Shown here: piece by piece, positions 2,321-56,166 of the stretch
Numbering within the stretch: position 1 is the first letter of the stretch
How the letters are laid out: every line of letters starts with the position of its first letter
Origin: an uncultured Gemmatimonadota bacterium
GTDB taxonomy: Bacteria; Gemmatimonadota; Gemmatimonadetes; Palauibacterales; Palauibacteraceae
Direction: 5' to 3'
DNA length: 64,000 nt
NCBI GenBank assembly: GCA_964465015.1
Contig: CAYXHP010000022.1
Coordinates: 1,704-65,703 of the forward strand
Program-made: the position numbers and the translations under genes
The notes under the pieces: generated by a model
Seen by the model: only the letters and a program-made list of their open reading frames with translations
Database searches by the model: none
Told to the model about the DNA's origin: nothing

Positions 2321-2639
2321 GCGACCGGCGGGCCGGGTGGGCCCGCTGTGGCCGTCCCTCCATCTCCACGATACGGGCGTCAGTCTGTGGACCGGGTGCC
2401 ACAGCCGGTCGGATCGGTTTTCGGGTATGGATCCTGCTAACACATTAAAGAGCAATACATTGAGTCCAAATGCGCTCGAAGCACGAAGCGTGCAGGGGTG
2501 GACGGCCGACGTGCACGGAATGCCGCCTGCACGAGGGATTTCGCGCACGCCGGAAAGGGCTCGAATCGACTACGGCGGGAGAGGTGGGGAAACGAGACGC
2601 GCCTCCCCCCGTGACCGCTCGACGAGGTGGAATCGCGAA

Positions 2640-3443
2640 GTGAGTACCCTCATACGGAATCGTTCCCGCTCCCGGGCACCCATCGGGTCTGTCGCCGGGA
2701 GTGTGGCGCTCTCCCTCGTGGCCGTGGCAGTGAGCACCGCCCTCGTGGCGCAGCAGCCCGTGACGCTGCCGGTCGCGACCGACACCACGCAGGGCGGGCA
2801 GATGGTGACCCGGTCGGAGCTGCAGGCCAGGCTCGACTCGCTGCGGTCCGCGGGTGACTCCCAGGCGGCCGCCCGTGTCGAGCAGCGGCTCCAGCGCGGC
2901 GACTTGCAGCCGGGCGACGTCCTCCAGGTGCAGGTGTGGGGCGATTCGTCCTTCAGCGGCAACTACGTGGTGAGCCCGCAGCGGACGATCCAGATCCAGG
3001 GGCTCACGGAGGTCGATCTCCACGGAGTGCTGTACTCGGAGGCGGATTCGGCCGTGGCGAAGGGACTCCAGGAGATCCTGCGCAGCCCGCGGGTGAGGGT
3101 GCAGTCGCTCACGCGGGTCGCGGTCCTGGGGGCCGTGAAGAACCCGGGCTTCTACGACCTGCAGCCCACCTCGTCGGTGGCCGACGCCCTGATGGTGGCG
3201 GGGGGACCGCAGCAGAGCGCCGATGTGAACAACATGCAGCTCGTGCGGAACGGGGAGAACGTGCTGCCAGACAAGGAGCCCGGCCTGACCACGATGACGC
3301 TCGCCGATCTGGGAGTGCAGCGAGGGGACCAGCTCTTGGTGCCTGCGCAGGGCCACGGGCTCAGCCTGCAGGTGATTCTGGGCGGCCTCGGGGCCCTGAT
3401 CGGACTGACATACGGAATCACCCGGCTCATCCGGGGACGCTGA
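2640..3443 (+). CDS. Polysaccharide export protein (Wza/EpsE-like, Poly_export/SLBB).
   Basis: GTG at 2640 opens a signal-peptide-like stretch (VAGSVALSLVAVAVSTALVAQQP). The remainder matches the polysaccharide export family by eye. The upstream part of ORF 2337.. has poor coding character. Start uncertain; ATG 2803 is the alternative. Confidence 0.7.
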   Translation: MSTLIRNRSRSRAPIGSVAGSVALSLVAVAVSTALVAQQPVTLPVATDTTQGGQMVTRSELQARLDSLRSAGDSQAAARVEQRLQRGDLQPGDVLQVQVWGDSSFSGNYVVSPQRTIQIQGLTEVDLHGVLYSEADSAVAKGLQEILRSPRVRVQSLTRVAVLGAVKNPGFYDLQPTSSVADALMVAGGPQQSADVNNMQLVRNGENVLPDKEPGLTTMTLADLGVQRGDQLLVPAQGHGLSLQVILGGLGALIGLTYGITRLIRGR

Positions 3444-4375: not shown

Positions 4376-5307
4376 TGACGCCGGCACGGAGCCTCGGGCA
4401 GGAGGCCCGGTCGCGGCCGCTGACGCTGGTGGTCGCGAGCGACCGGGAATGGTTCGTGATGGCGCTGGAAGCCGTGCTCCAGCCGCACGGATTCCGGCTG
4501 GGTCACGTGCGCAGCGCCGAGGAGCTGCTCGATGCGGTGGGCGAGCGACGTCCCGACGCCGTCCTGATCGACGATTCCCTGCCCGGGATGCCGCTTCCCG
4601 AGCTGTGCGGGAAGCTCGGCCGGCGCGGTCTCGCGCCCAGCGTGCCGGTGCTGCTCTACACGGCCTCCATGCTCTCCAACGAGGGCACGCTGGCCGCCGC
4701 GCTCGAGGCCGGCGCGTGGGCCATTCTCCCCGAGCCGATGCGGGCGGCCCGCATGCTCGCCGTCCTGCGGCGGCTCCTGTCGATCGGCCGCAGGATGCGG
4801 GGGCTCACCGAGGCTTCGGCCGAAGCGGGCCGAACCGTACTCTCCCGGGAGGAGTTGGAACGCTTCCTCCCTTTTCTCGAAGCGCTGGCCGAGCGTGAGC
4901 GGGCGGAGCTCAGCCTGGTCATGCTGGGTCCCACGCGGACGCCTGGAGGTGAGGTCGGTCCGGAGGCGGCGGTGGACACCGTGAGCCTGGTCCTGCGCCA
5001 CACGCGGCGCGCGGACCTGTGCGCCGAGCTGGAGGAGGACCAGGTGGCCGTCCTGGCCTACAACACCCCCGCCTCTGGAACCAGCGCGCTCGTGCGGCGT
5101 CTGAATCTGCTCGCCCTGGAGGCCGGGCCGGAAGACGCGGGCCCGAACCGGCTCAGCGCCGGGATCGTGCAGCTGTTCGCGGAGGGTGACCGGAGCGAAG
5201 CCGAGGAGGGCGCGGCACGCCGCCGCGCTCGTCTTTCGGCGGCCGAGCTGGCCCTGCTGGAGGCGCGCGCCGACGGCGGCGGAGTCCGGATGGCCGAGAA
5301 GAGCTGA
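4372..5307 (+). CDS. Response-regulator receiver-domain protein with a C-terminal domain of unknown function (possibly a degenerate GGDEF-like output domain).
   Basis: ATG 4372 overlaps the upstream stop (ATGA). REC-like N-terminus (LVVASD ... DAVLIDDSLPGMP ... LLYTAS). No GGDEF/EAL signature was recognised in the C-terminal ~170 aa. Confidence 0.6.
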   Translation: MMTPARSLGQEARSRPLTLVVASDREWFVMALEAVLQPHGFRLGHVRSAEELLDAVGERRPDAVLIDDSLPGMPLPELCGKLGRRGLAPSVPVLLYTASMLSNEGTLAAALEAGAWAILPEPMRAARMLAVLRRLLSIGRRMRGLTEASAEAGRTVLSREELERFLPFLEALAERERAELSLVMLGPTRTPGGEVGPEAAVDTVSLVLRHTRRADLCAELEEDQVAVLAYNTPASGTSALVRRLNLLALEAGPEDAGPNRLSAGIVQLFAEGDRSEAEEGAARRRARLSAAELALLEARADGGGVRMAEKS

Positions 5308-6695: not shown

Positions 6696-7505
6696 GTGGC
6701 CGCGGCCACGGTGAGCGCCTTCCTCCTCCTGTTCGGCCCCGGACTCGTGGAGCTGGTGGGTGACTGGCTCCGCGATACCGATTACCTGCACGGCTTCCTC
6801 CTCCTGGGCGTCGCGCTCTATCTGGCCTGGAGGGACCGCCGCCGCGCCGCGCCCTCCCCATCGCGCCGGGCGGGCGGTCTCGTCATCGGTGCCGCCGTGC
6901 TCCTCTTCCTCGTGGCCAGCGTCGCCTCGGAGCACTTCACGATGCGCCTGGCCGCGCTGGCGGCCGGTGCGGGCCTCGTCCTCTTCTACGTGGGCCCGGA
7001 GCAGCTTCGGGCGTGGTGGCTCCCCTTCGCACTCATGGTGTTCGCCATCCCGCTCCCGGAGGTCGTGGTGGGGACGGTGACGCTTCCTCTGCAGCTGTTC
7101 GCGTCGCGAAGCGCCGCGGCGCTGCTCCGGTTCCGGCATGTTCCGTCGACGGTCTCGGGCAACATCATCAATTTGCCGGGCCAGCGGCTGTTCGTGGCCC
7201 AGGCGTGCAGCGGCCTTCGGTCCCTGTCGGCCCTCTTCGGGCTCACGCTCCTCATGGGCGGCACCTGGCTCGACCGACCGGCCGACCGCATCGTGCTCCT
7301 GGTCGCCGCGCTCCCGGTGGCGTTGCTCGCGAACGTCTTCCGCATCTTCGTGACCGGCTTCCTGGCGTACTTCGTGGGCACGGGCGCGGTCACGGGCGAG
7401 GCACACGAGTCGGCGGGGCTCCTGGTGTTCGCGGCCGCCCTCGGCGTGCTCGGCCTGCTCGCCTGGATGTTGAAGAGCCGCGAGCGCTCGCGGGTGCGAG
7501 CGTGA
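6696..7505 (+). CDS. xrtA: Exosortase (XrtA/EpsH family transpeptidase).
   Basis: Polytopic membrane protein with the exosortase catalytic blocks: Cys in AQACSGLRS and the Asn-x-x-Arg in LANVFRIF. RBS GGAGGGAGG upstream of GTG 6696. It is followed by EpsI. Confidence 0.85.
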   Translation: MAAATVSAFLLLFGPGLVELVGDWLRDTDYLHGFLLLGVALYLAWRDRRRAAPSPSRRAGGLVIGAAVLLFLVASVASEHFTMRLAALAAGAGLVLFYVGPEQLRAWWLPFALMVFAIPLPEVVVGTVTLPLQLFASRSAAALLRFRHVPSTVSGNIINLPGQRLFVAQACSGLRSLSALFGLTLLMGGTWLDRPADRIVLLVAALPVALLANVFRIFVTGFLAYFVGTGAVTGEAHESAGLLVFAAALGVLGLLAWMLKSRERSRVRA

Positions 7506-8209
7506 GCGAGGTCGAGGGCGTGGGGGCGTCGCGGAGCGGCGCTGGCGGCGGTCGCCTGTGGGTGTCGCTCGTGCCCGCCGTGCTCCTGCTCCTCGGGGCG
7601 GGCGCCCGGACCGCGCTCCATCCCGGCCGCGAGCTGCCCCTCCAGGCCCCGCTCTCAGGCCTCGTGGGGTCCCTGGCGCGCTTCGGACCCTCGAGCGAGG
7701 TGCCTCTCGACCCGGCCAGCCGGAGCGTGCTGGCCGCCGACGACATCCTGTTCCGGAGGTATCGACCCTCGGGCGGAGGCGTCTTCGACGTCTTCGTGGC
7801 CTACTACGGTCGGCAGAAGGCGGGGAGCAGCATCCACTCCCCGCGGAACTGCCTCCCGGGGAGCGGCTGGGAGCCGCTGGAGCACCAGGAGGAGGCGGTG
7901 CATACGACCGTGGCGGATGGGCGGGTCAACCGCTACCTGGTCGAGGATGGCTCCGGCCGCCGCGCCCTCGTCTACTACTGGTACCAGGGGCGCGGGAGAA
8001 TCGTGGCGGACGAATACCGGGTGAAGTGGTACTTGCTTCGAGATGCCGTGCTCGAGCGACGCACGGACGAGGCCCTGATCCGGCTGGTGTTCGCGGTCGC
8101 ACCGGGCGAGACGGCCGACGTGGTGGCCGGGCGCACCCGTTCCTACGTGCAGCGGCTCGCCTCCGCCATGTGGGACTACCTTCCCCCCGCCAACGAGCCG
8201 GGGAGCTGA
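7502..8209 (+). CDS. epsI: EpsI family protein (exosortase-associated).
   Basis: GTG 7502 overlaps the exosortase stop (GTGA). N-terminal TM. Conserved block SIHSPRNCLPGSGW is typical of EpsI. The front half of long ORF 7013.. was rejected. Confidence 0.8.
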   Translation: MSEVEGVGASRSGAGGGRLWVSLVPAVLLLLGAGARTALHPGRELPLQAPLSGLVGSLARFGPSSEVPLDPASRSVLAADDILFRRYRPSGGGVFDVFVAYYGRQKAGSSIHSPRNCLPGSGWEPLEHQEEAVHTTVADGRVNRYLVEDGSGRRALVYYWYQGRGRIVADEYRVKWYLLRDAVLERRTDEALIRLVFAVAPGETADVVAGRTRSYVQRLASAMWDYLPPANEPGS

Positions 8210-49734: not shown

Positions 49735-50358
49735 GTGAGCCTCCTCGGATCGCTCCGCAGGAGGTTCGAGGAGGCGCGCACGCGTCGGCGCTGGGACCAG
49801 CTCCGCGCTCTCGGCATGAAGATCGGCGCCGACGTGTACCTTCCGGCCTCCACGCACATCGACGCCAGTCACTGCCATCTGATCAGCATCGGCGACCATT
49901 GCGGCTTCGGCCCCGAGTGCCTGATCCTGGCCCATGACGCCCAGATGGACGAGTTCCTGGATGCGGCGCGCATCGGCCACGTAACGATCCACCCCTCCTG
50001 CCACATCGGGGCCCGCACGGTCATCCTCGCGGGCGTCGAGATCGGGCCTAGGACGCTGGTCGGAGCCAACTCCGTCGTCACCTCCACGCTCCCGCCCGAG
50101 ACCGTCTGCGCGGGGAATCCGGCCCGGGTGCTGTGCTCGCTGGACGAGTACCTGGAGCGCCACCGCCGGGCTATCCAGTCCGGTCCCAGGTTCGAGTACG
50201 AGCTCTACGACATCCGGGCGCTGACCCCCGAGCGCCGGCGGGAGCTCGTGGAAGCGTGTGCCCGGGGCGACACCTACATGGTGGGAGGACGCTCCGCCGA
50301 GCTCCGCGGCGAAGGTGGGTCGCTACGCACGGCGTCGGAGGGTGAGTCGGCGCCGTAG
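49735..50358 (+). CDS. Left-handed beta-helix (hexapeptide-repeat) acetyltransferase.
   Basis: GTG 49735. Hexapeptide repeats IGDHCGFGPECLILAHD ... IGARTVILAGVEIGPRTLVGANSVV. Confidence 0.75.
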   Translation: MSLLGSLRRRFEEARTRRRWDQLRALGMKIGADVYLPASTHIDASHCHLISIGDHCGFGPECLILAHDAQMDEFLDAARIGHVTIHPSCHIGARTVILAGVEIGPRTLVGANSVVTSTLPPETVCAGNPARVLCSLDEYLERHRRAIQSGPRFEYELYDIRALTPERRRELVEACARGDTYMVGGRSAELRGEGGSLRTASEGESAP

Positions 50359-50514
50359 TCCCCGGAGTCGCGTCCTGAAACAATTTGTCAACATGCGAAG
50401 CCATTGCATGGGACGGGTTTCCGTGCAGAAGTGGAACTCGTTGCCGTAAAACGAGATGGTGCGAGGCATGGTGCTCGCATAAAAGGAAAAGCGCGCGGGT
50501 AGATAGCGCACGTC

Positions 50515-50612
50515 CACCGAACAAGTGAGGCAAACCCGGCGAAAGCCGGGGACGCAAAGTCACGGGGCTGTAGCGGCGAGGTCGCCGCCACGTCGGCCGG
50601 GCTGCCGGTGGG
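50515..50612 (+). promoter_or_regulatory. c-di-GMP-I (GEMM) riboswitch-like element, copy 1, in the leader of a Big_2 lipoprotein gene.
   Basis: AGGCAAACC-CGGC-GAAA-GCCG-GGGACGCAAAGUCACGGGGCU ... matches the GEMM core (GGCAAACC, a GNRA-capped hairpin, GGGACGCAAAGYC). Closing P1 is CCACCG ... CGGUGG. A second hairpin GCGGCGAGGUCGCCGC. Located in a 390-bp non-coding, lower-GC gap. Confidence 0.65.
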
Positions 50613-50809
50613 TCGTCGAGGTCCGGAGCCAAAGCTCCGGCTTCAGGCCGGGATGAGACGGCGAGCGACCGGTGGACGAGATGAAGGCGGGAGCCCCGGT
50701 GGGGCACCGCGCGATCGTTCACCGAGAACTCGGAGACTCACCCGTGAGCACCTACTCGCTTGCCCCCGTCGACGGCGGGGCGTCCACGAGCTCCCGGATC
50801 CACCCCGGT

Positions 50810-51445
50810 GTGGCGCGAGCCACTGCCGGCATCCTCCTCGCCGGAGTCGCGCTCGTTCTCGGAGCCTGTGCCAACAATCCCGCAGCCCCCGCGGACACGT
50901 CCACGAGCGGTGCGGCCACCGTCGTGTCCGTCCAGCTCAGCCCCTCCCCACTGAGCCTCATGGCGTCCCAATCGACCGGCTTGAGCGCGATGGCCAAGGA
51001 CGCGTATGGCAATCCCGTCACGGTGCAGCTGACGTGGAGCAGCTCGGACTCCAGTGTAGCCACCGTGGACAATGAGGGCACCGTGACCGGCATCACGGCC
51101 GGCGACGTCACCATCCAGGCCGCGGTCGGCGGGGTGACCGGGTCGGCCGATGTGACGGTCCAAGCCGACACCACGGGCGGCTCCTCCTCCCAGGCTCCGG
51201 TCGCAAGTGTCGCCGTGTCACCGTCGGCGGACACGCTCGCGGCGGGCGATTCCGTCAACCTCACCGCCACCCCCACAGACGCCTCGGGCAACACCGTCTA
51301 TGGCGTGCCCATCGGCTGGTCCAGCTCGGACACGGCCGTCGCGACGGTCAGCGGAGGTGAGGTCCATGCCCTGAAGGCGGGAAGCGTCACGATCTCGGCC
51401 GTGGCCGACAGCGTAACCGGGACGGCGACGATTCTCGTCCACTAG
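50810..51445 (+). CDS. Secreted lipoprotein with two bacterial Ig-like (Big_2) domains.
   Basis: Lipoprotein signal VARATAGILLAGVALVLGAC (lipobox LGAC) followed by two Big_2 repeats (VQLSPSPLSL ... GTVTGITAGDVTIQA; VAVSPSADTL ... ALKAGSVTISAV). The start is uncertain: ATG 50672 and GTG 50744 are in frame upstream. Confidence 0.65.
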   Translation: MARATAGILLAGVALVLGACANNPAAPADTSTSGAATVVSVQLSPSPLSLMASQSTGLSAMAKDAYGNPVTVQLTWSSSDSSVATVDNEGTVTGITAGDVTIQAAVGGVTGSADVTVQADTTGGSSSQAPVASVAVSPSADTLAAGDSVNLTATPTDASGNTVYGVPIGWSSSDTAVATVSGGEVHALKAGSVTISAVADSVTGTATILVH

Positions 51446-51461
51446 CATTCCATCCGGGGAC

Positions 51462-51488
51462 GGCGGAGCGCGTCTTCCGCGCGCTCCG
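51462..51488 (+). terminator. Rho-independent-type terminator hairpin after the first Big_2 gene.
   Basis: Perfect 11-bp inverted repeat GGCGGAGCGCG-tcttc-CGCGCTCCGCC, 17 nt after the stop codon. There is no U-tract, as is common in high-GC genomes. Confidence 0.5.
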
Positions 51489-51725
51489 CCGCCTCCATTC
51501 CTGCCAACGCCACCCCTCTCCACTTCCCCCGGTCCTCTCCTCCGTCTCCTTCTCTCGACGCCCCCGGGAGCGGTTGAAACCCACCCCTGAAAGATCTTCC
51601 CACCCGGACACTGATTGCAGCATCTGACAGGTCAGAGGCGATTCTAAGTCCTTGACCAACAACACTGTTAGTCAAGGTATGCATCTCGCCTGTGGGTTCG
51701 CCGGACGCGCGAGCATTCGCGTCTG

Positions 51726-51815
51726 TCCGCCGAAAAAGGCAAACCCGGGCGAAAGCCGGGGACGCAAAGCCACGGGGCTACAGCGGTCCAACCGCCATGC
51801 CAGCCGGGCTGCCGA
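51726..51815 (+). promoter_or_regulatory. c-di-GMP-I (GEMM) riboswitch-like element, copy 2, in the leader of the second Big_2 lipoprotein gene.
   Basis: AAAAAGGCAAACCCGGGCGAAAGCCGGGGACGCAAAGCCACGGGGCU ... is nearly identical to the copy-1 core. The downstream blocks GGUCCGGAGCCA and CUUCAGGCCCGG are also shared with copy 1. Confidence 0.65.
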
Positions 51816-52147
51816 GCGGTCGCTGTGGTCCGGAGCCACCGCGCATGTGCTTCAGGCCCGGTTGAGCCGCCGCGTGATCGGATGAAGAGAGTGTGGGCTC
51901 GCTATTGAGCCCGCGAGTCCTATCCCCCGACTCCGGAGCCTGACTCGTGTTCGACGCCCAAGGCGCATCGTGCGCCCACTCCCGAGCTGCATTCGACGCT
52001 GATTCGAATCATTCCCCAGGTCTTGACCGATCCTTCAGGAGCACCCTGCCCGAATCGTGCGAACGTCGCACGGCGGGACCTTCGCCACACGTCGGTGTAC
52101 GCTCTCGGATCCGTAGATGGTTATCGCTACGGCATCTGGGAGGATCG

Positions 52148-54016
52148 ATGGTCGCCTGCTACGTGGCTCTGACGCTCACGGCGTGCGCCAACAATCCAGC
52201 GGCGCCGGGCAGTACCTCATCGCCCGGTCCACTGGTCGAGGTGGCGTCGGTCGATCTCCACCCTGCCTCGATGAGTCTCGAGAGCGGCCAGTCGACCCTT
52301 CTGCAGGCCAGCGTGAAGGACAAGAACGGCAACAACGTCACTGTCAAAGTGGCGTGGTCCACGAGTGACGCGAGCGTCGCCACCGTGGATTCCACCGGCA
52401 CCGTTCGAGCCACCGGCTCGGGCAAGGCCACGATCAAGGCGAGCTCGCACGGGAAAGGTTCTCACACCCGTGTCAAGGTCAGCAGTCCGCCAGTGAGCGG
52501 GAGTCCGACGGACACGTCGTCGACCTCCTCGAGCGGATCGGCTGGAACGGTGGCCACCATCACGCTGACTCCGAGGCTGGACACCCTGGCTGTCTCCGAG
52601 ACGGTCAACCTGACCATGGTCCCGCGGGACGCCAGCGGTCACATCTTGACCGGCATCTCGGTGAGCTGGTCGAGCAGCAACACGTCGGTGGCGACCGTGG
52701 ACGGCGGCCTGGTCACCGCCAAGGGGGCGGGGTCGGCCACGATCACCGCGTATTCGGGCGGGGTCTCGGGCACGTCCTCGATCGTGGTGACTGGTGACGC
52801 CTCGTCGTCGGGTTCCCAGTCCACGGCGTCGGTAGCCATGGTCCAGGTCACGCCGGGCTCGGTCACTCTGGATCCAGGCCAGACCATCGATCTCACGGCC
52901 ACGCCCCTGGACGCATCCGGGAACGTCGTATACGGGGTCGGCGTCACCTGGTCGACCACCAACGCCTCGGTCGCGACGGTGAGCGGCGGCAAGGTGACGG
53001 CCGTGAACGCCGGTTCGGCCAAGATCGTGGCTTTGGCTGGCGGGATGTCCGGTTCGGCGAGCGTGACCGTGAACGATCCCCCGGTCTCGGCGGCACCGAC
53101 GCCCTCCGGAGACGCTTTGCTGAATGGGTGCACGGTCAGCGAGTCGAACAACACACCATCTTGCTCAACGCCTTCGGGCTGGACGCTCATCGCGAAGGAG
53201 GGCTTCGGCGGCGGCAGTGTCCATCAAGGCGAGATCGACACGGGCCAGTACGGGCCCGCCATCGACTGCGGCTTCAGCCACACCGGAAGCTGCTCGCTCC
53301 GGCAGGACATTTCTGGCGACGGCGGCTCCTACCGAAACTGGCACATCAAGAAGGGCACGATCGGATCGCGACACGAGATCTACGTCTCCTACTGGGAATA
53401 CCTGACGACGGGTGCCACCGAGCAGGTGAACTTCTTCATGGTTCTCGCCGACAACCAGGGTAGCCATACGGCCAACTCGCCCTACGAGTACGTCCTGCAG
53501 GATCGCTGGGGCGATGTGTCGACGAGTGCCAACTCGACCACTTGCAAGAACGGCGTGGGTCCGTACAACAACTACAAGTGCCAGAGCGGCCACCTGGTCG
53601 TCGAATCGGTGTGCGCCCCCTGCACCAACAACATCGCCCGGTCCTACTACGGCAACTGGCGTGACATGGCCGTCGGCAAGTGGGTTCACTTCGAGTGGCA
53701 CTACAAGGCCAACACTCAGAACGGTGCCGGCGGGAACGCGGACGGAGAGATCCAGCTCTTCGTAAACGGCGTCTCCGAGCTGCACAAGACGGGCGTCGTC
53801 ATCAACGGCCCCAACGACATGACCGGCATGTACGTACAGGTGGGCGGTTACTACATGGCCCGCTGGTGGACGAACTCCGCCGGCAACACCTGCTCGGCCG
53901 TGGATGCCGCGGGTGCGGTCTATCACTTCGGGCAGTTCACGCAGTTCAACCCGCCCTGCCCGCAGCCGTCGAGCTTCAAGCGTTACATGGACGACATCAT
54001 CGTCCTGGCGAGGTGA
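52148..54016 (+). CDS. Secreted lipoprotein with three Big_2 domains and a ~300-aa Cys-rich C-terminal domain of unknown function (possible carbohydrate-active or binding jelly-roll domain).
   Basis: RBS GGGAGGA then ATG 52148. Signal MVACYVALTLTAC. Three Big_2 repeats. The C-terminal region has about 14 Cys (GCTVSESNNTPSCS, CKNGVGPYNNYKCQSGHLVVESVCAPC, PPCPQP). The upstream 67 codons of ORF 51947.. have low GC3. Confidence 0.75.
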   Translation: MVACYVALTLTACANNPAAPGSTSSPGPLVEVASVDLHPASMSLESGQSTLLQASVKDKNGNNVTVKVAWSTSDASVATVDSTGTVRATGSGKATIKASSHGKGSHTRVKVSSPPVSGSPTDTSSTSSSGSAGTVATITLTPRLDTLAVSETVNLTMVPRDASGHILTGISVSWSSSNTSVATVDGGLVTAKGAGSATITAYSGGVSGTSSIVVTGDASSSGSQSTASVAMVQVTPGSVTLDPGQTIDLTATPLDASGNVVYGVGVTWSTTNASVATVSGGKVTAVNAGSAKIVALAGGMSGSASVTVNDPPVSAAPTPSGDALLNGCTVSESNNTPSCSTPSGWTLIAKEGFGGGSVHQGEIDTGQYGPAIDCGFSHTGSCSLRQDISGDGGSYRNWHIKKGTIGSRHEIYVSYWEYLTTGATEQVNFFMVLADNQGSHTANSPYEYVLQDRWGDVSTSANSTTCKNGVGPYNNYKCQSGHLVVESVCAPCTNNIARSYYGNWRDMAVGKWVHFEWHYKANTQNGAGGNADGEIQLFVNGVSELHKTGVVINGPNDMTGMYVQVGGYYMARWWTNSAGNTCSAVDAAGAVYHFGQFTQFNPPCPQPSSFKRYMDDIIVLAR

Positions 54017-54939
54017 GCCGAGTCATCGCACGAGGCGGAGCAACAGGGACGTGCTCAAGCGCAGATGGGTCGAATGCCCGTTCCCCTTCGGGCCTCTTCG
54101 GCACCTCGGGATGAGAGTCGGTGAGGGAGGCATGCGGCGCGGAAGGAATCGGGCACCCGGCCGCACGGTTGCGGTGCCCGCCTTCCGCGCCTCCCCGCCA
54201 CGGAGGCGCGGGGGGGGCTGTGAGCTTCCCCCGATCCCTGGGCCCCGACGGGATGGTTCGGAAGAGTATGGCGCGATGCCGAGCTGTCCGGGCAAGGGAT
54301 GGGCGGGCGTTCTCGCGGTTGATGGCATGGCCGGAGAGCTCGAGCTCAGGATCGTAACTACCCTCACGGCCGCGGCCGACTCTCCGTCCGGAGCCGTTCT
54401 TCGGACCGTGCGGCTCGTGTCCCATGCAGTCCACGAACCGTTTCCAGTCGGAGCCGCGGGCTCTGCCCGATCGGGTCGACCGGCAGGCCACCCTCGTGCG
54501 CTGCCCACCTGCCATGAAGCCTTCCAACCACACTCGACCGGGGAACGGGACCGACGCGATGCTTGCGAGGCCGAATCTGTCCTCTCCCAGCCGGTCCTGT
54601 AGCGACTCCAACATCATGAAGTCACGGAACGCCCAGGCGTAGGCCGGGGGTGCACGGCTGCGGATCCCCGCTGGCACGGTGCAGCCGGGCTCGGCCGGCC
54701 ACCGCTCGTCGCTGCGATGAGAAGAGCGCCGCGCTTGCGCTTCACCCCCCGTCGAGGCGCTCTCTGATCCACCGACGAACGGCGGAGTTCCGCATTCTCG
54801 ACGAGTCATCGGCCGCCGCGTACCTTCTGTCGAGGTCTACGGCCCTCCCGATCTCACGAGATTCGCGACCGTGGCTTGCGATGGGGGCCGATCTGGTGTC
54901 TGAGACATTCGCTCGACCGGTTTCACACCGCGGGGTTCT

Positions 54940-56166
54940 GTGAGTCGTCCTGAAATTCTCTTTCTGTCCCACTGCTTGCCCTATCCTCCAGCCAGTGGGG
55001 TCACCAATCGTACGTATCACATCCTCGAGCAACTGGGTCGGGAATTCGAGGTGTCCGTGGTGGCCTTCTCACGGAGAGAGCACCAGAAGTCATCCGAGGC
55101 CATACGCAAGGCCGCTCAAGGACTTCGGGGCATCGTCCACGAGGTCTACCCGCCGGCGCCGCTGCCCTCGGAGCGGTCGGTACTCCGGCGAGCGTTCGCT
55201 CATGTCCGCAGCGTGGCGTCGGGCAAGCCGTACACGGTGTTCGAGTATCGAAGTGCGACCTTCAGCCGCGGCCTGGCGGAGGCCATGGCGTCGCGCCGCC
55301 CGGATCTGGTCCACCTCGACAGCCTCGATCTCGCCGGCTTCATCGGACTCCTGCCCGATGCTCCGATCGCGTGCACTCACCACAGTGTGGAATCCGAGCT
55401 CCTTCGCTTGCGGGCCGAACACATTCGTCCGCGGCTCCTCGGCTCATACCTGAAGTTCCAGGCCGAGCTCATTGAGGATTCCGAACGAGAATTCTGTCCG
55501 CTCATGGCGACCAACATCATGATGTCGGATACGGATGCGCGTAGGCTCGAGTCGCTGGTCCCGGGTTCACGGACCGATGTGGTGCCGAATGGCGTGGATA
55601 CGACCGCGCTGAGCCCTCCCGGCGAGCCCCGGGACACGGACCGGATCGTCTTTCTCGGTCCGACCTACGTGTATCCCAACTTCGACGCCCTGTCCTTCTT
55701 CCTGAAACAGGTCTGGCCCCTCGTCCGATCGGCGGATAGAAAGCTGAGGTTCGAGATCGTCGGCAAGGTATCCACGAGGCACAGGGAGAGGTTCGAGGCG
55801 GAGAACGTCACGTGCCTGGGACACGTCGATGACTTGAAGGCGACCGTCGGGCGCGCCCTCTGTTCGGTCGTTCCAATTCGAATTGGGGGGGGGACCCGCC
55901 TCAAGATACTCGACTCGTGGGCGCTCGGAACGCCGGTGGTCTCCACATCGATCGGCTGTGAAGGTCTCGAAACCAGGGATGGCCGGAACATCTTGATCCG
56001 AGACGATCCCCGGGAGTTCGCGGCTGCGATCCTGGAGTTACGAAGGAACGCCGACCTGCGTGACACGCTGGGCGACGCCGGCCGACAGACGGCCGAGTCG
56101 GCCTATGCCTGGAGCGTGGTCGGAGACAGGATTCGGGGCATCTACCGGAGGCTCATCGACGCCTGA
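54940..56166 (+). CDS. Family 4 glycosyltransferase of the PEP-CTERM/exosortase-associated sugar transferase type.
   Basis: GTG 54940 (MSRPEILFLSHCLPYPPASGVTNR). The C-terminal GT4 fold was recognised by eye. Notably lower GC and GC3 (about 60%) than the rest of the locus. Confidence 0.75.
   Translation: MSRPEILFLSHCLPYPPASGVTNRTYHILEQLGREFEVSVVAFSRREHQKSSEAIRKAAQGLRGIVHEVYPPAPLPSERSVLRRAFAHVRSVASGKPYTVFEYRSATFSRGLAEAMASRRPDLVHLDSLDLAGFIGLLPDAPIACTHHSVESELLRLRAEHIRPRLLGSYLKFQAELIEDSEREFCPLMATNIMMSDTDARRLESLVPGSRTDVVPNGVDTTALSPPGEPRDTDRIVFLGPTYVYPNFDALSFFLKQVWPLVRSADRKLRFEIVGKVSTRHRERFEAENVTCLGHVDDLKATVGRALCSVVPIRIGGGTRLKILDSWALGTPVVSTSIGCEGLETRDGRNILIRDDPREFAAAILELRRNADLRDTLGDAGRQTAESAYAWSVVGDRIRGIYRRLIDA

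Follow-up and report, generated by a model that had tools for sequence, protein, structure and literature searches.

Two class-I c-di-GMP riboswitch aptamers precede duplicated Big_2 lipoprotein genes in an exosortase-type polysaccharide locus of an uncultured Gemmatimonadota bacterium

We examined a 64,000-nt stretch of DNA from an uncultured Gemmatimonadota bacterium (contig CAYXHP010000022.1 of assembly GCA_964465015.1; hereafter the window) and found that two of its non-coding elements are, by sequence and conserved pairing, bona fide GEMM-I aptamers of the cyclic di-GMP (c-di-GMP) type, each ahead of a gene for a Big_2-repeat lipoprotein (genes A and B). c-di-GMP-I is among the best-studied riboswitch families, and the two elements are two more members of it. 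We consider it very likely that each leader is a functional class-I (GEMM-I) c-di-GMP riboswitch acting in cis on the gene downstream, and that the pair represents duplicated, separately transcribed units. That the elements control these genes, as a first-pass annotation of the DNA had it, is something we infer from their position. The less ordinary aspects, which we present as leads, are a lineage-specific expression platform that resists reading, and the contrast between these units and the terminator-coupled cassettes of related Gemmatimonadota, whose aptamers have an A at the ligand-contacting position 20 (A20) where the window copies have a G (G20).

The whole window was scanned with Rfam 15 at gathering thresholds. 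Two matches to RF01051 (c-di-GMP-I, GEMM-I; gathering score 35) were obtained, both covering model positions 1-87 of 87: aptamer 1 at 50519-50609 (67.6 bits, E 4e-11) and aptamer 2 at 51728-51816 (78.2 bits, E 1e-13). No other Rfam family was matched in the 64-kb window, nor in a permissive scan of 50300-52200. The first-pass annotation had named an RF01051 search of both regions as the check on its riboswitch proposal; the scores lie 30-40 bits above the gathering score and exclude a chance resemblance to GEMM-I. Together with the closing helix P1, the aptamers occupy 50513-50612 and 51727-51819 on the + strand, limits drawn from the family match, the sequence and covariation. The core that had been recognized by eye, GGCAAACC and GGGACGCAAAGYC flanking a hairpin with a GAAA loop, was found in both copies. 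Each copy forms the GAAA-capped P2, the junction pairs G21-C46 and C22-G45, P3 and the closing P1. In the region that receives the GAAA loop, copy 2 (CUACAG/CAUGCC) is near the consensus and copy 1 (CUGUAG/CACGUC) is divergent, which accounts for the lower bit score of aptamer 1.

The closing P1 helix lies outside the RF01051 model. In aptamer 1, CCACCG (50514-50519) pairs with CGGUGG (50606-50611); in aptamer 2, CCGCCG (51727-51732) pairs with CG(A)GCGG (51813-51819). The helix had been predicted for both copies, and it is present in both and covaries with CGCUG/CAGCG of related aptamers. Covariation was assessed in an alignment of 14 aptamers, the two window copies and 12 related ones, on which the canonical structure was imposed. 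Over 27 pairs, 93.9% of the cells form standard pairs, compared with 20-45% when the partners are slid by 1-3 columns. Compensatory changes occur at seven pairs, and the observed covariation was reached by none of 500 shuffles. P1 itself (helix 1) is 94% paired, and in two of its pairs both bases differ between the window copies and their relatives.

The positions expected to contact the ligand could be located in both copies. In Vc2 numbering, G20 is 50529, A47 is 50556 and the CC that holds C92 is 50605-50606 in aptamer 1; the equivalents in aptamer 2 are 51738, 51766 and 51812-51813, and both Cs of the CC are conserved. The numbering was mapped indirectly, from the 27-nt spacing of G20 and A47, the published statement on G20 and its Watson-Crick edge, and the base pairs that join model positions 12-13 to 36-37. 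Vc1 (G12/A39; PMC4744006) and Bc1 (G11/A38; PMC11218506) have the same 27-nt spacing as Vc2. In Vc2, G20's Watson-Crick edge recognizes one c-di-GMP guanine at its Hoogsteen edge, and the other guanine pairs with C92 (PMC6140456). The same study reports that G20 is replaced by A in riboswitches for cyclic GMP-AMP (cGAMP), that wild-type G20 RNA rejects cGAMP, and that G20A RNA binds both ligands (PMC6140456).

The first-pass annotation took the base just 5' of CAAACC as the one that discriminates c-di-GMP from cGAMP, and read it as G. It is G in both copies, but the position was off by one nucleotide: the base that discriminates is Vc2 G20, which corresponds to Rfam model position 11 and lies two nucleotides 5' of CAAACC as the first G of GGC, and the immediate 5' neighbor of CAAACC is G21, which pairs with C46. 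Because G20 and G21 are both G in both copies, the earlier case for c-di-GMP survives this correction. Neither copy carries an A at the Vc2 G20 equivalent, which is the mark of GEMM-Ib; both have G at position 20 together with canonical GCAAAG and GGGCUGCC motifs. On this evidence, G20 would favor c-di-GMP over cGAMP in both window aptamers.

Ligand identity also has to be weighed against the relatives. One distant relative, L003 (a 75-kb metagenome contig reached by way of a Big_2 homologue), repeats the arrangement of the window: two Big_2 genes in succession, both with a GEMM-I aptamer of their own, beside Wzy and the same GFO/epimerase fusion as the window. In addition, a scan of a genome collection with an aptamer-core pattern returned at least 120 loci from many phyla, nine of them Gemmatimonadota among the matches listed. 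These nine named genome loci and L003 yielded 13 related aptamers: L003:143-232 and 2846-2934, L012:4643-4732, L020:1325-1414 and 1553-1644, L034:280-369, L070:2971-3059, L074:4121-4207, L078:7455-7548 and 7746-7834, L080:3812-3899, L103:957-1045 (- strand) and L121:3-90. All 13 have A at position 20, GCAGAG in place of GCAAAG, and GGGCCGCC in place of GGGCUGCC. Among the 122 pattern matches listed, A20 with GCAGAG, and likewise the combination of both with GGGCCGCC, occurs in 10/10 aptamers from Gemmatimonadota and in 0/112 from other phyla; these others comprise 87 with G20 and 21 with A20, and GCAAAG is found in both groups. We found no description of GEMM riboswitches in Gemmatimonadota in the literature searched.

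The relatives raise an alternative: the window elements could be real GEMM-I folds that sense 3'3'-cGAMP, or both dinucleotides, as do the Geobacter GEMM-Ib RNAs and possibly the A20 aptamers. With A20 in all 13 other aptamers from Gemmatimonadota-type loci, and with one of those loci, L003, syntenic with the window, the lineage may use another ligand; the A20-type relatives may sense cGAMP or both dinucleotides, or else c-di-GMP. Nor does position 20 alone fix specificity in the GEMM-I family, as P1 contributes and natural A20 variants are often bispecific (PMC6140456). In the window copies, however, G20, GCAAAG and GGGCUGCC are all canonical, wild-type RNA with G20 discriminates against cGAMP (PMC6140456), and G20 with GCAAAG is the majority type, in 87 of the 122 aptamers among the matches listed. 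We therefore regard a cGAMP or dual ligand as highly improbable for the window aptamers, and c-di-GMP as the ligand to be expected.

The genes downstream are as had been proposed. Gene starts were judged by GC content at codon position 3 (GC3), and lipoboxes ([LVI][ASTVI][GAS]C) were read from the translations. Gene A (50744-51445, + strand, 702 nt) encodes a lipoprotein with two Big_2 domains (Pfam Big_2, E 1.2e-20, two stretches). Its GTG start is preceded by a GGAG Shine-Dalgarno element with an 8-nt spacer (50732-50746), and the gene called in public data gives the 233-aa product that begins at GTG 50744; the first 22 codons (50744-50809) have an in-frame GC3 of 0.91. The lipobox is LGA-C at residue 42 (...LAGVALVLGA-C-ANNPAAP). 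The start is nevertheless uncertain, because a 20-aa signal peptide of more canonical lipoprotein type would result from an internal GTG at 50810. Gene B (52148-54016, + strand) encodes a lipoprotein with three Big_2 domains (Pfam Big_2, E 4e-29) and a C-terminal beta-jelly-roll. The public call (National Center for Biotechnology Information data) starts at ATG 52148 and gives a 622-aa product, P0001; a strong GGGAGGA Shine-Dalgarno element and the ATG together span 52138-52150. Its lipobox, LTA-C (MVACYVALTLTA-C-ANNPAAP), leads into the same ANNPAAP as in gene A, and its signal peptide is short and lacks a basic residue.

A start for gene B at GTG 51947, which gives the longest open reading frame and is homologous to the gene A start, was ruled out by codon-position GC and by the public gene call. 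The 201 nt upstream of the gene B ATG are open and in frame, with a GC3 of 0.57 compared with 0.64-0.65 in the other frames and 0.86 in the gene body, and so appear to be non-coding. The aptamers thus lie on the coding strand, 135 nt (gene A) and 332 nt (gene B) upstream of the starts. As a separate observation, gene A and leader 1 are found with 100% identity over 420 nt in three further contigs, L125 and L126 (Logan SRR8556254 and SRR8556427) and L127 (JGI 3300031281). Since contigs of independent public data sets are identical over this length, the same population has been sampled repeatedly; being identical to the window sequence, these contigs give no covariation.

Alignment of the two units revealed their common origin. 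The first-pass annotation described two homologous blocks of about 130 nt; the homology is real, but the aptamers themselves are ~90-100 nt and the similarity runs further, beginning with a promoter-like block of low GC, continuing across aptamer and platform and reaching a GGAG-N8-GTG element. The proteins of genes A and B are 47% identical, aligned from the lipobox across two Big_2 domains. Identity between the units at the DNA level is 44% at codon position 3, 55% over all coding DNA and 56% in the upstream block, and rises to 66% in the late platform, 69% in the post-aptamer leader, 76% in the region around the conserved hairpin and 87% in the aptamer. Two shared blocks noted previously downstream of the aptamers, GGTCCGGAGCC (50620-50630 and 51827-51837) and GCTTCAGGCC (50640-50649 and 51849-51858), are 100% identical. 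From these comparisons, leader and gene were duplicated together long ago to give the two units. Because the aptamers, with compensatory changes in P1, and the two 10-11-nt blocks were kept while synonymous sites became saturated, both units are taken to be functional and under selection; judged by these identities, purifying selection acts on the two aptamers as well as on the leader sequence that follows.

This pattern bears directly on whether one or both elements might be decaying relics that no longer regulate after loss of an original terminator-type platform. Decay would fit the lack of a recognizable terminator or sequestering helix, the remodeling of leader 2 (a dead start site and 200 nt that are apparently non-coding), the degenerate tetraloop receptor of aptamer 1, and the clear aptamer-overlapping terminators that most relatives have and the window copies lack. 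With third codon positions saturated, however, the conservation of the aptamers, the compensatory P1 changes and the invariant platform blocks are hard to explain without selection. The ligand-contact bases are all intact in both copies, and U-tailed terminators are almost unused in the window (one in 64 kb), so that their lack is uninformative. We judge decay to be very unlikely.

The organization of the flanking DNA suggests that each element heads its own transcription unit. Each aptamer is preceded by a promoter-like region on the + strand, at 50438-50512 for aptamer 1 (GC 0.55) and at 51651-51726 for aptamer 2 (low GC, 56% identity to 50438-50512). The two regions share an upstream block (TTGCCG...GGCATGG..CTCGC in leader 1, TTGACC...GGTATGC..CTCGC in leader 2), and may act as promoters, although a sigma-70 consensus scan found no site in the region upstream of aptamer 1. 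Lower-GC gaps had been reported ahead of both genes, and indeed intergenic GC is 0.64 against 0.687 for the window, and falls to 0.55-0.59 upstream of the aptamers. Eleven nucleotides past the gene A stop is a strong GC hairpin (51456-51496, + strand; -35.7 kcal/mol, z -5.45), which probably marks the end of transcription unit 1. The terminator hairpin that the first-pass annotation set at 51462-51488 is real and very stable, but has no U-tail. In the window as a whole, only 1 of 471 perfect-stem hairpins is followed by a U-rich tail (4847-4871), in contrast to several related loci with up to four U-tailed hairpins per 8 kb. The organism of the window thus seems, from these counts, to end transcripts without U-tails. 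Because U-tailed hairpins are almost unused, even after gene A, a missing U-tail does not exclude termination.

The arrangement had been called a tandem pair. There are two units, each with a riboswitch, but they are separate gene units and not two aptamers in one leader; gene A and its hairpin intervene, so the mark of tandem riboswitches, two or more aptamers in one 5' untranslated region with no gene between them, is absent. A cooperative or two-input tandem riboswitch on a single gene A-gene B transcript would be in keeping with the position of the aptamers on the same strand, 1.2 kb apart, and with true tandem GEMM-I aptamers elsewhere: in the relatives L020 and L078 and in Bacillus (PMC4759541, as cited in PMC11218506). 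It is quite unlikely, given the complete gene and the -35.7 kcal/mol hairpin between the aptamers, the low-GC promoter-like block that each aptamer has to itself and that is homologous between the copies, and a duplication that took in the whole unit and not the aptamer alone. Two separately transcribed units remain the preferred arrangement.

The relatives provide a reference for how such aptamers can be read out. In nine or more of the 13, a long hairpin with a U-rich tract directly after it takes its 5' half from the aptamer 3' strand (GGGCCGCCAGCG). This terminator overlaps the aptamer at L034:353-410, and lies just 3' of the aptamer also in L012, L020, L074, L078, L080, L103 and L121. In folding, the terminator hairpin vanishes when the aptamer 3' strand is withheld, and these relatives are therefore predicted to be ON switches in which the ligand prevents termination. 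The terminator of one L003 aptamer (L003a) is separate from the aptamer, being formed by GAAGCGGG/CCCGCUUC ahead of UUUAUUU, which is an OFF design. A reading of CUGGCGGCC in the relatives as an anti-terminator (an OFF switch) was revised after systematic folding, as the aptamer strand itself is in the terminator in most of them. Most related aptamers lie ahead of genes for Big_2/fn3 lipoproteins whose N-terminus carries a conserved FKLSxRLA motif. L020 and L078 each have two aptamers 140-200 nt apart in one leader, each with a terminator-like hairpin; the L020 pair precedes one Big_2 gene, and the L078 locus ends before the gene.

The platforms of the window copies are built differently. The order after P1 is the same in both leaders: GGUCG, GGUCCGGAGCC, a loop that varies, GCUUCAGGCC and a stretch rich in purines. 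The invariant blocks can pair with each other over 10-11 bp with a single mismatch, and can be enclosed by an outer stem. The resulting hairpin, H1, comprises GGUCCGGAGCC ... GGCUUCAGGCC at 50620-50649 in leader 1 (z -1.86) and GGUCCGGAGCC ... GCUUCAGGCC at 51827-51858 in leader 2 (z -0.93), both on the + strand. The inner stem of H1, CCGGAGC/GCUCCGG, is confined to leader 1; in leader 2, the 3' half of H1, CAGGCCCGG, can instead pair with the aptamer 3' strand CCGGGCUG. A consensus fold of the two leaders gave the shared hairpin, the outer stem and a long-range CACGGG/CYCGUG pairing; as it derives from two paralogues with non-significant z values, it was not relied on. Scans for a classical intrinsic terminator, by consensus and by hairpin plus U-tail, found none after the aptamers, and H1 is not followed by a U-run. 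With the aptamer enforced in thermodynamic folding, the probability that the start region of leader 1 is unpaired rises from 0.25 to 0.51; as the effect on sequestration of the Shine-Dalgarno element is modest in leader 1 and nil in leader 2, it is not used as evidence of mechanism.

Leader 2 (~332 nt) has further features of its own. A relic of a gene A-type start, GGAG-N8-GTG, is recognizable by homology at 51935-51949, and a C-rich, G-poor stretch (C/G 1.4-1.75) extends over 51910-52090, both on the + strand; by composition, this stretch would fit a Rho-loading site, a speculative assignment. Close to the gene, a predicted hairpin of ~15 bp at 52102-52144 (CUCUCGGAUCCGUAG ... CUACGGCAUCUGGGAG) covers the first half of the gene B Shine-Dalgarno element whether the aptamer is folded or not.

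From these elements, a mechanism can be proposed. Binding of c-di-GMP would close P1 and lock the aptamer 3' strand CCGGGCUGCC, and the locked strand would change the pairing options of the downstream GGUCCGGAGCC...GCUUCAGGCC(C)GG. The changed pairing would in turn set the expression of the Big_2 lipoprotein (gene A) and of the Big_2 and lyase-like protein (gene B), through a read-out other than a classical U-tailed intrinsic terminator. For gene A, the ligand might free the GGAG/GTG start, which in the ligand-free state would pair with the P1 3' strand and the linker GGUGGGUCGUCGAG. For gene B, transcription might be attenuated in the C-rich leader, by a U-less hairpin or by Rho. As both genes are in the exosortase EPS cluster, the second messenger would thereby be tied to the cell-surface matrix. 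Whether c-di-GMP activates or represses is close to an even guess; we lean slightly to activation because of the accessibility result for leader 1 and the precedent of adhesin-type targets.

Several observations weigh against this proposal. The first-pass annotation had spoken of a conserved expression platform: its sequence is kept between the paralogues, but the fold does not surpass that of shuffled sequences, neither z value being significant, and no relatives of it were found. Scanning metagenomes for a pattern of aptamer plus platform gave seven loci, none with a GEMM-I aptamer and all due to chance, and a BLAST search with the platform against ~120 aptamer-bearing loci gave no matches. 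Neither aptamer is followed by a canonical terminator or by a clear helix that sequesters the Shine-Dalgarno element. The predicted alternative pairings differ between leaders 1 and 2, and the start sites in leader 2 are unchanged by the state of the aptamer (0.40/0.37 and 0.26/0.23). Because the gene B start lies 332 nt from the aptamer, direct translational control of this gene is unlikely. Finally, the non-consensus tetraloop-receptor region of aptamer 1 might, to judge from its sequence, weaken folding.

The C-terminal domain of gene B (nt 53129-54013, 295 residues) suggests what one target might do. The first-pass annotation saw a Cys-rich putative enzymatic or binding domain here, and we read the domain as a beta-jelly-roll most like polysaccharide lyases (PLs). 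It contains no Pfam family, and a word-indexed homology search with it gave no matches; an exhaustive HMMER search identified a rare, unnamed family, with 136 representatives among 1.84 billion. The domain is in every case placed at one end of an array of Ig-like repeats (TIG, He_PIG, Big_2, ASH/Cep192), and the family shares the invariant C-terminal motif F.RY.DDI.V and invariant residues that include E189, D288, D289, Y85 and S87. Seven of 23 relatives touch PF14099 (Polysacc_lyase) below its cut-off (best E 3e-4), one of the 23 matches PL14 (E 4.7e-5), and the best match of the family profile in the PDB is the alginate lyase Aly36B (E 0.04); no sequence match reached the threshold of a lyase family (PF14099, PL13/14/20/36). 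The beta-jelly-roll fold of the domain can be superposed on known lyases; the nearest known beta-jelly-roll lyases are the PL20 glucuronan lyase 2zzj, PL14 5gmt, PL13 heparinase I and the PL36 enzyme Aly36B, with PF14099 as the Pfam family. A single-sequence AlphaFold model of the domain had a predicted local distance difference test score (pLDDT) of 40.8 and was discarded. On this reading, the beta-jelly-roll of gene B is probably a polysaccharide-cleaving enzyme.

Both units lie within genes for exopolysaccharide (EPS) synthesis and export. The exosortase setting described before was borne out by EpsH (PF09721, E 1e-63, 6696-7505), which is clustered with export and glycosyltransferase (GT) genes, as is the mark of exosortase-type EPS loci; Poly_export/SLBB is at 2337-3443. 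The locus also encodes an AlgX-like SGNH protein, many GT2/GT4 enzymes (about eight GT genes), two AsnB-type amidotransferases, a flippase, a DUF3473 deacetylase and a FemAB-like protein. Downstream of genes A and B are a GT4 gene (54940-56166), a GFO/epimerase fusion, a deacetylase and a GT1 gene reaching 63998. The pair had been placed at the edge of the EPS locus; this did not hold, as the locus continues on both sides with the pair embedded in it, and the whole window is one large exosortase-type EPS locus. Two regions downstream of gene B were also noted. The 923 nt between gene B and the next glycosyltransferase (54017-54939) have a normal GC (0.684) but contain no open reading frame with coding-like GC3 and no Rfam match. 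The GT4 gene at 54940-56166 has a GC of 0.63 and a GC3 of 0.77, compared with 0.81-0.92 in its neighbors, and 53-56 kb is the GC minimum of the window; by composition, this gene may have been acquired later.

Comparison with known systems shows what is shared and what is not. With Vc2 and Vc1 of Vibrio cholerae, the window aptamers share the full-length model match, P1, P2 (GAAA) and P3, G20, A47 and C92, and the location in a 5' leader. They differ in the high-GC host, the lack of a recognizable terminator or sequestering helix, the degenerate receptor of aptamer 1, and the 332-nt leader 2 with its dead start. The targets resemble that of Vc1, which controls gbpA, a gene for a secreted, surface-associated protein acting on or binding polysaccharide (PMC4744006). 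Bc2 of Bacillus thuringiensis is an ON switch for the collagen adhesion protein Cap/CbpA (PMC4933901 and PMC7423583, as cited in PMC11218506). The likeness is a GEMM-I element ahead of a large cell-surface protein with Ig-like repeats, and the difference is that Bacillus switches use classical U-tailed terminators, whereas the window targets are lipoproteins inside an EPS locus.

The Geobacter GEMM-Ib RNAs (Gs1761, Gm0970) have the same fold and Rfam family, and their G20-to-A change is a feature of the A20 relatives, not of the window. In Gs1761, A14 is the equivalent of Vc2 G20. The A20 relatives share with the window the Big_2 lipoprotein targets, sometimes an EPS locus and sometimes two consecutive units (L003), and a near-identical base of P3 (CACGGGRCU/GCCGGGC). 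Beyond position 20, they differ in that columns 51/99 pair as A-U in the window copies only, and in that the FKLSxRLA motif of their proteins is missing from genes A and B. In one scenario, an ancestral EPS-locus cassette, a GEMM-I element with a Big_2 lipoprotein gene, would exist in two states within one bacterial lineage: a common form with A20, GCAGAG/GGGCCGCC and an aptamer-overlapping intrinsic terminator and, in the window, a form that reverted or switched to G20 and exchanged the terminator for a conserved U-less platform; we hold this scenario to be rather unlikely. Were it true, and were the A20 form to sense cGAMP or both dinucleotides, the organism of the window would have rewired the same matrix genes between second messengers, with a non-canonical (Rho-dependent or translational) read-out. 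It would also represent a natural switch in ligand specificity at homologous riboswitch loci, outside the Geobacter group.

For the annotation of this genome, the improvement is that two genes for surface proteins within the exosortase EPS cluster now count as probable direct targets of c-di-GMP. One of the two is likely to cleave polysaccharide, which gives a testable link between c-di-GMP and matrix remodeling in a group that is little studied and mostly uncultured. The contrast between A20 with a textbook terminator and G20 with an unreadable platform provides material for the study of how riboswitch specificity and read-out evolve.

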